This document shows positions 1 through 46,824 of a stretch of 64,000 nucleotides of DNA, one piece after another (position 1 is the first letter of the stretch; each line of letters starts with the position of its first letter). The notes under the pieces were generated by a model that had not been told where the DNA came from, ran no database searches, and was given only the letters and a program-made list of their open reading frames with translations. Origin of the DNA: Escherichia coli (GTDB taxonomy: Bacteria > Pseudomonadota > Gammaproteobacteria > Enterobacterales > Enterobacteriaceae); assembly GCF_009931435.1 (NCBI RefSeq), contig NZ_CP043414.1. One strand, written 5' to 3'. Position numbers and translations under genes: made by a program.

Positions 1-2
1 TT

Positions 3-161
3 AAATATCGTAACAAATGGTACGTTCTGGATGTAGGCGGGAACAATCTTAGGGTTATTGCCTACATAAACTTTGTTAATAAGCGGTTCTTTGTGAAGCA
101 CATAACGAATCATGCCGAGTATGACAAACTGACACGTTACTACAGAGAGAACAGAGAATGA
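3..161 (+). CDS. HigB-family (RelE-fold) mRNA-interferase toxin, C-terminal 52 codons; 5' end lies outside the window
   Basis: Frame ending in TGA at 159-161 translates to ...NKWYVLDVGGNNLRVIAYINFVNKRFFVKHITNHAEYDKL..., matching the VGGNxLRV...H.EYD pattern I recall for E. coli HigB (YgjN). Stop overlaps the start of the downstream HTH gene by 4 nt (ATGA). Confidence 0.6.
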   Translation, partial: KYRNKWYVLDVGGNNLRVIAYINFVNKRFFVKHITNHAEYDKLTRYYRENRE

Positions 162-577
162 CTGCTAATGCTGCACGCGCTGTTAAAGCAACAAGAGAAC
201 TGGTCAATGCAGTCCCCTTTCTGGGAGGCAGTGACTCAGAAGATGATTATCGTGAAGCACTGGAACTGGTCGAATATTTGATTGAAGAAGATGACACCAA
301 TCCACTTATCGACTTTCTGGCGAGCCGCATTGCAGAGTATGAAAACAACCACGAAAAGTTTGCAGAGTTCGACAAAGCCGTTGCTGCAATGCCGGTTGGC
401 GTGGCGTTACTTCGCACGTTGATTGATCAACATAATCTGACCTATGCGGATTTGAAGAACGAAATCGGCTCTAAATCCCTGGTCAGTCAGATTTTGTCTG
501 GACAAAGATCCCTGACGATATCCCACATTAAGGCACTTTCAGCCCGATTTGGCGTTAAGCCGGAATGGTTTCTTTGA
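158..577 (+). CDS. HigA-family antitoxin (HTH-XRE DNA-binding protein)
   Basis: 139-aa ORF from the track; its C-terminal half (EIGSKSLVSQILSGQRSLTISHIKALSARFG) resembles the HTH of E. coli HigA (YgjM). Toxin-first gene order is typical of higBA. Confidence 0.7.
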   Translation: MTANAARAVKATRELVNAVPFLGGSDSEDDYREALELVEYLIEEDDTNPLIDFLASRIAEYENNHEKFAEFDKAVAAMPVGVALLRTLIDQHNLTYADLKNEIGSKSLVSQILSGQRSLTISHIKALSARFGVKPEWFL

Positions 578-599
578 TTTTGACTGATGCCAAACGCCA

Positions 600-690
600 G
601 ATTGCCCGATGCGCTGCGCTTATCGGGCCTACATGTCGCACGAACTATGTAGGCCGGATAAGGCGTTCACGCCGCATCCGGCACGTTTGC
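600..690. repeat. REP/BIME-type palindromic element
   Basis: GC-rich imperfect palindromes (gcctacatgtcgcacgaactatgtaggccggataaggcgttcacgccgcatccggc) typical of E. coli REP units, between higA-like gene and ascB. Confidence 0.55.
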
Positions 691-3581
<2,891 letters not shown>

Positions 3582-3666
3582 CGGATTTTATCCTGTTATC
3601 AGTAGGGTAGAGGTAGTTGTTATCAGTCGACGTGACGGGAAATTGCCGATGCTGAAACGGAATTAA

Positions 3667-3754
3667 GAAACCGGTTTCACAAAATCATGAATAGTTGATA
3701 CTGATTAAGCAAGAGAGTTAATTGCTCATTTTTTATATTTGTGAAACCGGTCAC
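3667..3754. promoter_or_regulatory. Divergent ascF/ascG control region with two GalR/LacI-type operator-like palindromes
   Basis: Perfect palindrome GAAACCGGTTTC at 3667-3678 and related GTGAAACCGGTCAC at 3741-3754, in the intergenic region between divergent ascF and ascG. AscG is a LacI/GalR-family repressor. Confidence 0.35.
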
Positions 3755-3837
3755 CTGAATATTTTTCCCGCTGCTTGCGCAAGGACAATCAGCCAACGGT
3801 GCAGTACACTGCGTTGATTGCGTGTAAAGGGATGAAA

Positions 3838-4851
3838 ATGATGACGACGATGCTGGAAGTGGCGAAGCGCGCCGGGGTTTCAAAAGCGACCGTTTCCCGC
3901 GTGCTTTCAGGTAATGGCTACGTCAGCCAGGAAACTAAAGATCGCGTGTTTCAGGCGGTGGAAGAGAGCGGCTACCGCCCAAATTTGCTGGCGCGCAATC
4001 TGTCAGCGAAGAGTACCCAGACGCTGGGGCTGGTAGTGACCAACACGCTTTACCACGGCATTTATTTTAGTGAATTACTGTTTCATACCGCGAGAATGGC
4101 GGAAGAGAAAGGGCGTCAGCTGCTATTGGCAGATGGCAAACATAGCGCCGAAGAAGAACGCCAGGCGATTCAGTATCTACTGGATCTGCGCTGCGACGCC
4201 ATTATGATTTACCCGCGCTTTTTAAGCGTGGATGAGATTGATGACATCATTGATGCACACAATCAGCCGATAATGGTGCTCAATCGCCGCCTGCGCAAAA
4301 ACAGTAGCCATAGCGTCTGGTGCGATCATAAACAGACCAGCTTTAACGCCGTGGCAGAGTTGATAAACGCCGGACATCAGGAGATTGCTTTCCTTACCGG
4401 TTCGATGGATTCCCCCACCAGCATTGAACGCCTTGCCGGATATAAAGACGCGCTGGCGCAGCATGGTATTGCACTCAATGAAAAACTTATCGCTAACGGT
4501 AAATGGACGCCTGCCAGCGGGGCCGAAGGGGTAGAAACGTTGCTCGAACGTGGGGCTAAATTTAGCGCGTTAGTTGCCAGTAACGACGATATGGCGATAG
4601 GTGCGATGAAAGCGTTGCATGACCGTGGTGTAGCGGTGCCGGAGCAAGTATCGGTTATTGGATTTGATGATATCGCAATTGCCCCCTACACCGTTCCGGC
4701 GCTCTCCAGCGTAAAAATTCCGGTGACTGAGATGATTCAGGAAATAATTGGGCGGCTGATATTTATGCTCGATGGTGGTGCTTACACACCGCCGAAAACC
4801 TTCAGCGGAAAACTAATCCGCCGCGACTCACTCATTGCTCTTTCGCGATAA
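3838..4851 (+). CDS. ascG: LacI/GalR-family transcriptional repressor of the asc operon
   Basis: Track ORF 3775-4851 (TTG at 3775). K-12-like N-terminus MTTMLEVAKRAGVSKATVSRVL begins at 3838/3841; AAGGG Shine-Dalgarno 7 nt upstream of 3838. HTH plus periplasmic-binding-like fold. Confidence 0.88.
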   Translation: MMTTMLEVAKRAGVSKATVSRVLSGNGYVSQETKDRVFQAVEESGYRPNLLARNLSAKSTQTLGLVVTNTLYHGIYFSELLFHTARMAEEKGRQLLLADGKHSAEEERQAIQYLLDLRCDAIMIYPRFLSVDEIDDIIDAHNQPIMVLNRRLRKNSSHSVWCDHKQTSFNAVAELINAGHQEIAFLTGSMDSPTSIERLAGYKDALAQHGIALNEKLIANGKWTPASGAEGVETLLERGAKFSALVASNDDMAIGAMKALHDRGVAVPEQVSVIGFDDIAIAPYTVPALSSVKIPVTEMIQEIIGRLIFMLDGGAYTPPKTFSGKLIRRDSLIALSR

Positions 4852-29248: not shown

Positions 29249-30361
29249 TTACCTGTCAGTCACCCGATATTCCACGCTATGTGCTTCATCAGGTTGAGGA
29301 ACTTCCAGCCTTGAGGCCATCCGCATCACGACCGCTTCAGGAACGGCATACTCGCGCCTGGCATTTTGCTGCTTCCATTGCGCCCACGGTACTTCCAGAT
29401 AAACGATTTTTACTCGTGCACCGTAAGCCGTAAACAGACTGATGAGCTGGCTACGCAACTGGCGGGTAATGTTCGTTGCATTCCAGATGAACGGCTTCTT
29501 CTGGCGTAAAAAAACGCGCGCTTCTTCTTTTGCCTGTTGCACAATACGCCCGGTGGCGGTTTTGTCGTCCGGACTGGCATTGATTCGCCGCCGCATATCA
29601 TCAAGGCTGATAACGTTCACTCTCTGGCACTGTTCACTGATAAAGCGATCTTTGCCCATACCCGGTAAACCACACAGCAAAATAACCTCAAAAGATTCAG
29701 CCTCCCAGGGAACAAAATCAGGAGAACTTTGTTCATGGGTCAGGTAATGCCAGCGTGCGGAATCCGAAGCGAATGAACGCACTTTTCCCCAGCATTGTTG
29801 CTCCTGGCAAAATAGCTTGAACAGATCGATGCGTTCCAGCATTGATTGCTGATCATGACAATGGCGACCAAGCAGATCGGCACGAGCAAGCAAAGCGAGC
29901 AGACGCGTGTCGATACGCATTGCAGCCGTGAGCAGCAAACGCTCCGGTTCCGGACGTTCCAGTAACCATAGCGGTAACCCATGCAGACGCACCAGTGCAA
30001 CAATTTGCTCGCGTAGCACGAACGGTGTCGGGATATCGCGCCATAAAATTTGTCGGGCCGTCAATTCACCCCGACGAGCATGACCAGGGGACTGAATACG
30101 TCCGTTTTCCTGCACGGTAGTACTGCGCTTTTCAACGTCATGCAATAACGCCGCCGCCCATAAAATTTCCTGCTGCTGAGCGGGGAGTTGCTGAAACTCA
30201 GCCATCGCAACGAGTGCGTTCAGCACCATTTCAGTATGCACACCAACGTCGCCTTCACCATGATGCTCCGGGTCTTGCGGCGTGTTATGCATATCCTCAA
30301 CCCAGCTAAAACGCTGGCGTAGCGTCGACCAGCGTTTGTCGTCGGTAAGTTGCCAAATCAT
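29249..30361 (-). CDS. HD-domain phosphoesterase fused to P-loop NTPase (polynucleotide-kinase-like); predicted RNA/DNA end-healing enzyme
   Basis: 370-aa ORF. N-terminal HD signature: [16 protein letters not shown] (res 31-46), AALLHDVEK (res 70-78), ARADLLGR (res 159-166). C-terminal Walker A GLPGMGKD (res 231-238) and Walker B-like NVISLDD (res 249-255). Start overlaps the stop of the upstream ligase-like ORF by 4 nt. Confidence 0.65.
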
Positions 30362-31065
30362 GACTGTTCTCCATAAGCGAACTCATGGGCCATCCGCGCC
30401 CGTCGCCAGTGGCGTTTCCAGTGCTCGGTGGTTTTGACATGATTTTTGCGTACATACTTGAAGACGTTATGCGAAAAGTCAGCGACGGAAAACGCATCAC
30501 TATTCCGGCTGACAATGCCTTCCAGCGTACAGGGTTGCCCGGTTTGCGTATCCCAGGGATCGAACGCGCCGCGCGCATTGGTCAGCGCCAGAAAATCACG
30601 TTGCCAGCTTTTTTCATCATTCCCCGGCTGCGGGCCGGAGATTTCGGGAACGCAGGGGAAATCAAACAGAGCGGCGTAAAACTGCACCTCTTCCCAGCTC
30701 AGCCACATATCCTGGCAGCGAACGGCAAACAGATAAAAATCCTGCTCCAGGGCGCGATATTCAATCGAATGAACGGCATAAAGATTTTCACCAAACAACT
30801 CCAGATCGCCGAGATCGTTTTTCAGCGATTGCCAGCGTTGGCGAATTTTATAGGTCCATGCCGATTCCGTTGGCGCGGCATGGGAACGGGCAAACACGCC
30901 GAAGCGATTAAGACAGTTATTTTCGCCGTCGAGTTTTTCAGTATGTACCAACTGCGAAATTGCCTGCATATCTTGCCAGTAACTGGCGTTAATGCGGTCA
31001 TCGCTGGTGGTGCCAGGGGAGAAGGGATAATGCCAGGTTCTCCCGTATTTACGTTGGATAATCAT
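30358..31065 (-). CDS. Rnl2-like ATP-dependent RNA ligase (nucleotidyltransferase domain only)
   Basis: 235-aa ORF with candidate covalent-nucleotidyltransferase motifs in canonical order and spacing: I KLDG (K44), III LFGE (90-93), IV EGIV (182-185), V KYVRK (203-207). First gene of a 2-gene operon. Confidence 0.6.
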
Positions 31066-44762: not shown

Positions 44763-44970
44763 GATTCGTATTTCCGTTTAAAATGAAGATACGGCGCGAT
44801 GATACGCGTCGGGTTGTCTCTCTGTTGATACAGAGATACTAGATGTAGTTGAAAAAAGATTCAACCATACAAGATATGGGAATTTTAGATTGATTACACC
44901 ACCGATGAATGGCTCAACGGGGTAGGGGATTTTGTGTTTTTTTGCCGGGCGATTGCCCGGCATCAGGAAG

Positions 44971-45402
44971 TTACATCCGCATGGAAACGGCCAGGCGGTT
45001 AAAGCAATTCATCAGCCCGATGGCAAATGTTAAGTCGCTGATTTCTGCTGCGCTGAAATGCTCAAGCAAAGGCTGATAAACGTCGTCTTCCGCATGGGTT
45101 CGGGCAATATCGGTCACCGATTCCGCCCATGCCAGCGCCGCCCGCTCGCGATCGTCAAAATGATGGCTTACGCGCCAGCCTGCCAGGGCATCCAGCTTAT
45201 GCTGCGGCACACCGGATTTGCGTAATGCTTTGCTGTGCATCTCCAGACAAAATGCGCAACCATTGATTTGCGAGACGCGCAAATAAACTAACTCCATCAG
45301 CGTAGTTTCCAGCGTGCTATTTTCCAGCGCCGTTTTGGCCTGCACCAGCGCGTTATATACCGTTGGGCTAAGTTCGTAGTAAGGCTGACGTAATGTAGTC
45401 AT
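44971..45402 (-). CDS. AhpD-like / carboxymuconolactone decarboxylase family protein
   Basis: 143-aa ORF with CxxCxxxH signature (NGCAFCLEMH); strong AGGAG SD; divergent from a MocR-type regulator. I do not recall a gene here in K-12. Confidence 0.7.
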   Translation of the reverse strand: MTTLRQPYYELSPTVYNALVQAKTALENSTLETTLMELVYLRVSQINGCAFCLEMHSKALRKSGVPQHKLDALAGWRVSHHFDDRERAALAWAESVTDIARTHAEDDVYQPLLEHFSAAEISDLTFAIGLMNCFNRLAVSMRM

Positions 45403-45489
45403 ACAGTTTCTCCTCTTATTAACGCCCGCAATGTAGCACTATAATGGACTGCTAAAGAGAGCCATAAATTACCTAAAAAAGCAGACCAT

Positions 45490-46824
45490 ATGCCGCGCTA
45501 TCAGGATATCGCCCGTCAGTTAAAAACGGCTATTGAGCAAGGGGAACTGAAACCCGGCGCAAGGCTACCTTCAAGTCGTACCTGGTCGCAGGAACTGGGG
45601 GTGTCTCGATCCACTGTCGAAAATGCGTATGCTGAGCTGGTGGCGCAAGGATGGCTGATCAGGCGGGGACAGGCTGGCACATTTGTCAGTGAGCAGATAT
45701 ATCCGCAACAATCTACTGTACAAGTTGTGTCTTTTGCCGGTGAAAGTCAGCAACCGTTGCCATTTCAAATGGGATTACCCGCACTCGATCTCTTTCCGCG
45801 AGAGCTGTGGGCGCGGGTGATGGGGCGTCGCCTTCGTACCCAGACGCGCTTTGATTTGGCGTTAGGCGATGTCTGCGGTGAGGCGGCGTTGCGTGAGGCA
45901 ATAGTTGATTACTTACGCGTTTCACGTGGGATTGATTGTCAGCCAGAGCAGGTCTTTATCACTCACGGTTATGCGGCCTCAATGGCTTTAATTCTGCACG
46001 CGCTGGCGAAACCGGGAAACGGGATGTGGATGGAAGATCCCGGCTTTCCACTGATTCGCCCGATTGTCACTCGCCACGGTGTGGAAATTTTGCCTGTGCC
46101 GGTTGATGACAACGGACTGGATATCACAAGCGGAATACAAAATTATCCTGATGCGTGTTTTGCCCTGATAACACCAGCACACCAAAGCCCGCTGGGTGTG
46201 GCGCTCTCTTTAGCGCGCAGGCATCAGATACTGGAATGGGCAGAGCGTAGTCAGGCATGGATTATTGAAGATGATTATGACAGTGAGTTTCGCTATCACG
46301 GTAAGCCGTTACCGGCGTTAAAAAGTCTCGATGCACCGCAGCGGGTAATTTATGCCGGAACATTCAGCAAAGCACTATTTCCTGCATTGCGCTGTGCGTG
46401 GCTGGTGGTGCCGGTGAAGCAAATTGCACAATTCCGCCACCAGGCGTCACTGGCTCCATGTGCGGTACCTGTTCTATGGCAGAACACACTGGCAGACTTT
46501 CTTCGCGAGGGGCATTTCTGGCGGCATCTGAAGAAAATGCGTCAGCATTATGCTCAACGTCGGCAATGGATTGAGCAAGCGTTGACGCAGCAGGGATTTC
46601 AGGTTGTGCCGCAGAAAGGTGGTATCCAGATGGTGATCAGAATGATGGGCGATGATATTGCCCATGCGCGTAAAGCCAATGCTGCAGGCCTTGCGGTGCA
46701 GGCACTTAGCGACTGGCGTATCCGCTCAAGTGGGGAAGGTGGATTACTTCTCTCGTTTACCAATATCGTTAACGAAGGTATGGCGCGACAGGTAGCACAA
46801 CAATTACGTAAAGCCTTAAGCTAA
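45490..46824 (+). CDS. MocR/GabR-type regulator (GntR wHTH fused to PLP-dependent aminotransferase-like domain)
   Basis: 444-aa ORF; N-terminal GntR HTH (YQDIARQLKTAIEQGELKPGARLPSSRTWSQELGVSRSTVENAYAELVAQGWL), C-terminal class-I aminotransferase-like region with candidate PLP lysine (FSKALFP). Confidence 0.75.
   Translation: MPRYQDIARQLKTAIEQGELKPGARLPSSRTWSQELGVSRSTVENAYAELVAQGWLIRRGQAGTFVSEQIYPQQSTVQVVSFAGESQQPLPFQMGLPALDLFPRELWARVMGRRLRTQTRFDLALGDVCGEAALREAIVDYLRVSRGIDCQPEQVFITHGYAASMALILHALAKPGNGMWMEDPGFPLIRPIVTRHGVEILPVPVDDNGLDITSGIQNYPDACFALITPAHQSPLGVALSLARRHQILEWAERSQAWIIEDDYDSEFRYHGKPLPALKSLDAPQRVIYAGTFSKALFPALRCAWLVVPVKQIAQFRHQASLAPCAVPVLWQNTLADFLREGHFWRHLKKMRQHYAQRRQWIEQALTQQGFQVVPQKGGIQMVIRMMGDDIAHARKANAAGLAVQALSDWRIRSSGEGGLLLSFTNIVNEGMARQVAQQLRKALS

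Follow-up and report, generated by a model that had tools for sequence, protein, structure and literature searches.

Introduction

AscG is a LacI/GalR-family repressor of the cryptic ascFB operon for which no inducer is known, expression of the operon following upon insertion of IS186 in ascG (PMC3505978). The closest described system is that of Escherichia coli K-12, the AscG boxes of which at ascFB (Ishida, Kori & Ishihama 2009, J Bacteriol 191:6136) are available as a RegulonDB curation from gSELEX; the passage of PMC3505978 that cites Ishida 2009 gives two AscG sites at ascFB. Guharajan et al. (PMC8667592) listed an AscG site from P_ascF as TGAAACCGGTTTCT, and reported strong, AscG-dependent repression with this site at +1 of a CRP-independent synthetic promoter, and next to none with it at -61. 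A CRP ChIP-seq peak with the motif GGTGACCGGTTTCACA has been recorded at ascG/ascF in the enterotoxigenic strain ETEC H10407 (Haycocks et al., PMC4287617).

The lac promoter (CRP site at -61.5, lac O1 at +11, plus auxiliary operators) resembles the asc control region in being a weak class I CRP promoter with a LacI-family operator over or just downstream of the start, and a second operator upstream near the CRP site. However, the LacI tetramer loops lac O1 to O3 and O2, whereas AscG gives no looping signature and has no known inducer (PMC3505978), and the upstream asc site lies within the CRP box itself rather than beside it. At gal OE, the target of GalR, and at the CytR-CRP promoters, a LacI/GalR-family repressor with an upstream operator likewise interferes with CRP-dependent activation. 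By way of contrast, GalR loops OE to OI with HU, and CytR binds cooperatively with CRP without any competition, whereas the asc motifs overlap by 14 of 16 bp and would be expected to exclude one another's ligands. Finally, the palindrome TGAAACCGGTTTCA, the same 14 bp as the AscG consensus, occurs as a string in publications dealing with PtxS or the kgu operon of Pseudomonas, and is the operator bound by PtxS, which is also of the LacI family. PtxS is nevertheless a non-orthologous regulator serving another regulon (2-ketogluconate) in another genus, and the motif is common to the two on account of the half-site preferences of the LacI family, the loci themselves not being homologous.

Gene content and distribution of the locus

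The 64-kb stretch of E. coli DNA that was analysed, hereafter the window, contains three intact asc genes, as follows.

691..2115, minus strand: ascB, 6-phospho-beta-glucosidase, 474 aa, intact (open reading frame list; RefSeq annotation; NF007356, 1089 bits).
2124..3581, minus strand: ascF, PTS cellobiose/arbutin/salicin EIIBC, 485 aa, intact (open reading frame list; NCBIfam NF007311, 1026 bits, cut-off 722; a 100%-identical genome in RefSeq carries this annotation).
3841..4851, plus strand: ascG, LacI/GalR-family repressor, 336 aa, intact, with an alternative ATG at 3838 (LacI-family NCBIfam matches).

Together with hydN and hypF, which are also present in the window, these genes are arranged in the order found in E. 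coli K-12, but in the opposite orientation. An earlier note on this DNA had described paired operator-like palindromes in a divergent ascF/ascG control region, and both the motifs and their setting were borne out: the span concerned (3582-3837) is exactly the ascF/ascG intergenic region, ascF starting at 3581 on the minus strand and ascG at 3838 or 3841 on the plus strand. An RNA element in the intergenic region was ruled out, no Rfam match being returned there at E values up to 1, and a scan of the region for terminator-like sites found none.

The 601-bp region around the sites was present in 4698 of 5426 complete E. coli genomes, with the annotation reading ascF and ascG in all of them; the asc locus is absent from the remaining 728. 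The asc allele carried by the window is an unusual one, positions 3400-4000 being matched at an identity of at least 99% over 601 bp in only 18 E. coli records, while some 4500 fall between 95 and 99%. Outside E. coli, the nearest AscG is that of 'Escherichia sp. E1V33' (98%).

The surroundings of the locus also exhibited some distinctive features. Genes for a HigB-family toxin and a helix-turn-helix antitoxin adjoin the 3' end of ascB (window 1-700; locus L002, 1-1178), where K-12 has hycI, and this pair is an accessory insertion or replacement at the junction. Further into the window, the annotation of locus L086 placed genes for an RNA-ligase-family protein and an ATP-binding protein between emrB and luxS (~29250-31060), and genes for a PLP-dependent aminotransferase-family and a carboxymuconolactone-decarboxylase-family protein between ygaM and nrdH (~44970-46820). 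Both of the latter pairs are accessory, and neither is known to occur in K-12 at these positions.

The promoter-proximal AscG operator

The first of the two motifs, GAAACCGGTTTC, is a perfect 12-bp palindrome at 3667-3678, and forms the inner part of the operator designated O1.

3666..3679, no strand assigned: AscG operator O1, AGAAACCGGTTTCA, one mismatch to the consensus TGAAACCGGTTTCA; inner 12-bp palindrome at 3667-3678, centre 3672/3673.

Measured against the palindromic consensus formed by the half-sites TGAAACC and GGTTTCA, which meet in a central CG, O1 departs at one position while retaining the perfect inner 12-mer, whereas the second motif, O2, carries three mismatches, all of them in its right half. 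The reverse complement of O1, TGAAACCGGTTTCT, is identical to the P_ascF AscG site in Table S3 of PMC8667592, and O1 is thus the known AscG operator of P_ascF, both functional and already described. The earlier reading of this palindrome as a LacI/GalR-type operator for AscG, with CG at its centre, is supported.

For phylogenetic footprinting, AscG was used as the query against one genome per species, yielding 80 orthologous loci with protein identities of 66-98%, and the resultant 81 sequences were aligned on the core AACCGGTT. The genera represented included Escherichia, Citrobacter, Enterobacter, Lelliottia, Leclercia, Klebsiella, Raoultella, Kluyvera, Phytobacter, Pseudocitrobacter, Aeromonas and Sodalis, among others, and in those loci with sequence shown through the start codon, the divergent upstream gene began with an AscF-like N-terminus. 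The O1 core was recovered in every one of the 81 loci, from Escherichia to Aeromonas, at maximal information content, and the information content of the block TGTGGAACCGGTTTCCTA was near maximal across the same 81 sequences; O1 co-occurred with ascG in all 80 orthologous loci.

Counts of matches carried less weight. O1 was the only match to the 12-mer with fewer than two mismatches in the 64-kb window, and allowing up to two mismatches gave seven matches against 2.96 expected, a number reached in 3 of 100 shuffles. It is the conservation of O1 at a homologous position in 81 of 81 loci, not these counts, that provides the decisive argument for its reality. Further AscG boxes within the window were ruled out, since none had fewer than two mismatches and the two-mismatch matches were near chance.

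Within E. coli, the 40-mer around O1 was identical in 2247 of 4699 records and differed by one base in 2451. The outermost position of O1 (window 3666) is subject to an A/G polymorphism in the aligned sequences, with G, the alternative, being also the state in most other genera.

The putative ascF promoter and its CRP box

Alignment on the O1 core also brought into register a set of putative promoter elements, which are listed below with the associated CRP box.

3677 (plus or minus 2 nt), minus strand: putative ascF transcription start, from the position of the -10 element; leader of ~96 nt.
3684..3689, minus strand: putative ascFp -10 element, CATGAT; (C/G)ATGAT keeps a constant distance from O1, and 72 of 81 loci have A2 and T6.
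3707..3712, minus strand: putative ascFp -35 element, TTGCTT; 17-bp spacer, with TTG 16-17 bp upstream of the -10 element in 81 of 81 loci.
3740..3755, no strand assigned: CRP box, TGTGAAACCGGTCACC, 9 of 10 consensus positions of TGTGA-N6-TCACA, centre 3747/3748; putative class I activator site for ascFp.

The 3740-3755 box was the sole match to TGTGA-N6-TCACA with up to one mismatch in the 64 kb (1.66 expected). The motif GGTGACCGGTTTCACA reported under the CRP peak of PMC4287617 is the reverse complement of window 3740-3755, so that the same 16-mer is reported as bound in vivo in ETEC. A CRP-like box with up to two mismatches was present in 79 of the 81 orthologous loci, and the distance of its centre from that of O1 was 74-75 bp in 76 of the 81 sequences, 73 bp in a single one and 65 bp in the other four. 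With the start placed at 3677, CRP would be centred at -70.5, and at -60.5 in the four loci with the 65-bp spacing. As 75 and 65 bp differ by one helical turn, this is the pattern to be expected of a class I CRP site that has shifted between the positions -71.5 and -61.5.

In Enterobacter, only ~38 nt separate O1 from the ascF ATG, which indicates that the promoter cannot be downstream of O1. A sigma-70 consensus scan with a threshold of 9/12 reported no promoter in the region, a silence explained by the match of the ascFp hexamers to only 7 of 12 consensus positions; hexamers as weak as these agree with a dependence on CRP. Taken as a whole, the fixed geometry of this footprint would mark a sigma-70 promoter that depends on CRP in the class I manner, with an operator held fixed relative to the core promoter. 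O1, at about +5 of ascFp, would then cover the transcription start. The base-resolution promoter model that this comparison suggests, with O1 over the start and CRP at a class I position, would constitute a modest addition to what was known.

Two other features of this part of the region were recorded. Where the window reads TCAACT (3693-3698), in the ascFp spacer ~20 bp upstream of O1, most non-Escherichia orthologs (loci L022-L076) have a conserved GAAACT resembling an AscG half-site. In the ascF leader (window 3594-3627), there is a 10-bp direct repeat, TGTTATCAGT, with a spacing of 24 bp, and E. coli E272 (locus L085) is without exactly one 24-bp leader unit, corresponding to a deletion between the TGTTATCAGT repeats.

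The distal AscG site within the CRP box

The second motif, GTGAAACCGGTCAC at 3741-3754, had also been proposed as an AscG operator, some 70 bp from the first; the distance was roughly right, the 9-mer GAAACCGGT shared by the two motifs recurring with a start-to-start spacing of 76 bp. The corresponding AscG-type element is as follows.

3742..3755, no strand assigned: AscG operator O2, TGAAACCGGTCACC, left half-site perfect, right half-site 4/7, centre 3748/3749; embedded in the CRP box.

Inspection of its symmetry demonstrated that this motif is not a true palindrome about CC|GG: the left TGAAACC is perfect, while the right GGTCACC matches the AscG half-site at four of seven positions. Its outer GTGA...TCAC symmetry has its centre 1 bp to the left of CC|GG, and belongs to the CRP-type box, TGTGA-N6-TCACC, at 3740-3755. 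O2 overlaps 14 of the 16 bp of that box, and together with O1, from which it is separated by 76 bp centre to centre, brackets the -35 and -10 hexamers of ascFp.

In E. coli, the 40-mer around the second site was identical in 4546 of 4699 records, but among the orthologous loci the 6-bp CRP spacer AACCGG occurred only in four Escherichia-type sequences. The nearest approaches were seen in Kluyvera and one Enterobacteriaceae isolate (locus L059), where the spacer is AACCGA or AATCGA. Other genera keep the CRP half-sites while the spacer varies freely (for example CTTAGA, TGATGA, TGCAGA and ATGGGA). Conservation across the orthologous loci was thus found for O1 but not, outside Escherichia and apart from the near-matches in Kluyvera, for O2, which marks O2 as a lineage-specific member of the AscG boxes.

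The second site is therefore primarily a conserved, ancestral CRP box, which in Escherichia has come to include the core and one half-site of an AscG operator as well. The consensus motifs of CRP and AscG overlap naturally with a 1-bp offset and have TGA...TCA in common, so a change in the spacer alone would be needed to create O2. The proposal of a second AscG operator therefore stands in part: two AscG sites are reported in the passage of PMC3505978 that cites Ishida 2009, while the element itself is first and foremost the CRP box occupied in the ChIP-seq data of PMC4287617, its AscG-like spacer being confined to the Escherichia lineage. The right half of O2 is degenerate (4/7), and AscG is predicted to bind O2 more weakly than O1. 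The distal AscG site is then best regarded as a lineage-specific overlay on a conserved CRP box, and offers a small, testable example of a repressor site evolving inside an activator site.

Comparison with E. coli K-12

Alignment of the intergenic region with that of K-12 MG1655 revealed 13 substitutions, none of which falls in either motif; five are in the ascFp spacer and two between the -35 element and the CRP box, those that remain being located in the ascF leader or ahead of the ascG promoter. The two strains agree fully in the promoter hexamers and in the CRP box, the K-12 coordinates being 2839425-2839440 for O1, 2839349-2839364 for the CRP box with O2, and 2839428 for the predicted ascF start. 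AscG itself is 98% identical to its K-12 counterpart, and wholly so over residues 1-60, which comprise the helix-turn-helix and hinge. Its eight substitutions (T83/A, N141/S, T233/M, D261/E, A314/D, Y315/F, T316/S and L334/P, with the window residue given first) all lie in the regulatory domain, and the stretch AGVSKATVSRVL is unchanged in the 80 orthologs.

The AscG boxes of K-12 ascFB therefore belong to the same locus, with identical sites, hexamers, CRP box and AscG DNA-binding region, and with O1 as the experimental P_ascF site; no functional difference is predicted between the two, the 13 intergenic and eight regulatory-domain substitutions being the whole of the difference. Operator integrity, named in the earlier note as possibly bearing on expression, consequently does not set this strain apart, the sites, putative hexamers and AscG residues 1-60 all being those of K-12. 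On the strength of these unchanged elements a K-12-like cryptic phenotype is predicted, with the operon in this strain as repressed as it is in K-12. For annotation purposes, neither the cis-elements nor the AscG DNA-binding region gives any hint of asc expression differing from that in K-12.

The AscG box, the two ascFB sites and CRP binding here have already been published for E. coli, and the copies in this strain are unchanged. Only two points are mildly new: O2 arose within a single lineage, and in one natural isolate, E. coli TUM1226, the 54-bp core promoter is inverted, as considered below.

Mechanism of repression and alternative explanations

The most satisfactory reading of these data, to which a probability of about 85% may be attached, is that 3582-3837 represents the usual regulatory region by which the cryptic asc operon is controlled, consisting of a CRP-dependent promoter and a promoter-proximal repressor site. 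Under this scheme ascFp, on the minus strand, would combine a weak -35 element (TTGCTT), a 17-bp spacer and the -10 element CATGAT to initiate transcription at ~3677, with cAMP-CRP on the 3740-3755 box (centre ~-70.5, class I) activating the promoter. An AscG dimer on O1 (centre ~+5) would occlude RNA polymerase or the start site. In Escherichia, the AACCGG spacer would provide the second, weaker AscG site O2 inside the CRP box, where AscG may compete with CRP and so impose a double lock in conjunction with O1. ascG would be transcribed from a conserved promoter of its own at 3782-3810. The sequences and their conservation are demonstrated here, and AscG-dependent repression through the O1 sequence and CRP occupancy of the 16-mer are documented in print (PMC8667592; PMC4287617); in drawing up this scheme we infer the transcription start, the class I geometry, and the competition between CRP and AscG at O2.

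The abstract of the 2009 study by Ishida and colleagues is said to give the consensus TGAAACC-GGTTTCA with two sites at ascFB, and the study reportedly ascribes repression to interference both with cAMP-CRP, at a CRP box overlapping one of the AscG sites, and with RNA polymerase binding. The same abstract reportedly places both sites 'upstream of the ascFB promoter', a wording that, if taken literally, would conflict with a location of O1 over the start site. The near absence of any effect of AscG at -61 of a CRP-independent promoter (PMC8667592) fits an O2 that acts only via exclusion of CRP.

A further elaboration, tentative and on the whole doubtful, is that O2 is an innovation of the Escherichia lineage in which the CRP spacer changed to AACCGG, such that AscG excludes both the activator and RNA polymerase, and that this double lock may help to explain the silence of asc; the 14-bp inverted repeat would then be a by-product that occasionally inverts the promoter, as in TUM1226. 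Were this so, relatives with only O1 and a plain CRP box may regulate asc normally.

Repression by looping, as had been suggested in the earlier note, is unlikely. According to this alternative, AscG dimers on O1 and O2 would associate and loop out the 76 bp with the core promoter, repressing cooperatively in the manner of LacI/GalR. Two AscG-type sites 76 bp apart do bracket the -35 and -10 elements, and the geometry would permit a loop, spacings of 75.5 and 77.5 bp giving stable loops in the LacI system of PMC3505978, in which several chimeras of LacI/GalR paralogs also displayed dimer-dimer looping. However, the chimera of the LacI DNA-binding domain with the AscG regulatory domain (LLhA/Q55A) exhibited less than a 2-fold dependence on spacing between 70.5 and 77.5 bp, whereas the GalR, TreR and GalS chimeras did depend on it, and the authors contrasted the LLhA/Q55A result with the two natural AscG sites (PMC3505978). 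The comparative evidence pointed in the same direction: conservation of a second operator and its phasing with the system was not found, the 74-75 bp spacing being kept in ~70 loci in which the spacer of the CRP box does not resemble an AscG site. Since the spacing persists without a second AscG-like site, it is accounted for by the geometry of CRP and promoter, and loop phasing is not needed to explain it. In addition, AscG, at 336 aa, is of a length like that of GalR and has no LacI-type tetramerisation tail.

The preferred reading, of AscG acting at O1 on a CRP-dependent promoter, also has to be set against the very improbable alternative that the sites serve, wholly or in part, as targets of the paralogous GalR and GalS through cross-talk. 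When K-12 was scanned by information theory, both sites were scored as binding GalR (12.66 bits at 2839356; AAGAAACCGGTTTCAC at 2839425-40; PMC5110547), and the NCBIfam models nearest to AscG are those of GalR and GalS. The scan matches are nevertheless in silico only, and asc is not among the 15 GalR-bound ChIP-chip regions of the same study (PMC5110547), on which ground GalR cross-binding was rejected as the main explanation. Moreover, the O1 sequence responds to AscG titration (PMC8667592), and its co-occurrence with ascG throughout the 80 loci likewise points to AscG as the cognate regulator.

The two sites resemble each other more closely than the earlier note described, forming a perfect 14-nt inverted repeat (ACCGGTTTCACAAA at 3670-3683 and TTTGTGAAACCGGT at 3738-3751) with 54 nt between its arms. 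In E. coli TUM1226 (NZ_CP135719.1, locus L084, 331-384), the 54 bp corresponding to window 3684-3737 are present as the exact reverse complement, with one mismatch to K-12. This amounts to an inversion between the 14-bp repeats, which would point the ascF core promoter at ascG. It might be supposed in consequence that the repeats are the ends of an invertible segment, ascFB being switched ON and OFF by inversion of the 54-bp core promoter. Such a supposition is hardly credible: TUM1226 was the only inverted case among 4699 E. coli records, every other record having both 40-mers in the usual orientation with a coverage of 80% or more. Moreover, the locus is not flanked by any recombinase gene, and the operator and CRP functions already account for the repeats. 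The TUM1226 case itself could have arisen by a rare template switch or through an error of assembly.

That the palindromes are chance matches without function has a negligible probability, for although some 12-bp palindrome may readily occur in an AT-rich intergenic region of 256 bp, and the window contains no more CRP-like matches than chance would give, this reading is already refuted by the fixed geometry of O1 (81/81) and the CRP box (79/81) across genera, by published AscG-dependent repression (PMC8667592), and by published CRP ChIP occupancy (PMC4287617).

The putative ascG promoter

A second putative promoter, directed towards ascG, was recognised from its conservation.

3782..3810, plus strand: putative ascG promoter, comprising a -35 element AGGACA (3782-3787), a 17-bp spacer and a -10 element TACACT (3805-3810).

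In nearly all of the 80 loci, GGACA or CGACA followed after ~17 bp by GGTGCAGTACACTGCG is conserved between the CRP box and the ascG ATG. By way of contrast with the fixed arrangement at ascFp, the distance from the CRP box to this promoter differs between genera, from which it follows that the CRP geometry belongs to ascFp rather than ascGp. The putative ascG promoter is overlapped by neither of the AscG sites, which would argue against tight autoregulation. Autoregulation of ascG through O2 was likewise judged unlikely, O2 being ~68 bp upstream of the putative ascG start and ascGp having no constant distance from the CRP box among the genera.

The sequence GGTGCAGTACACTGCG (window 3798-3813), which includes the near-palindrome GCAGT-AC-ACTGC, hardly varies among orthologs from Escherichia to Aeromonas, in which it precedes ascG by ~30 bp. 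This degree of conservation exceeds the needs of a -10 hexamer, and may indicate an unrecognised protein site or an element at the 5' end of the ascG mRNA.
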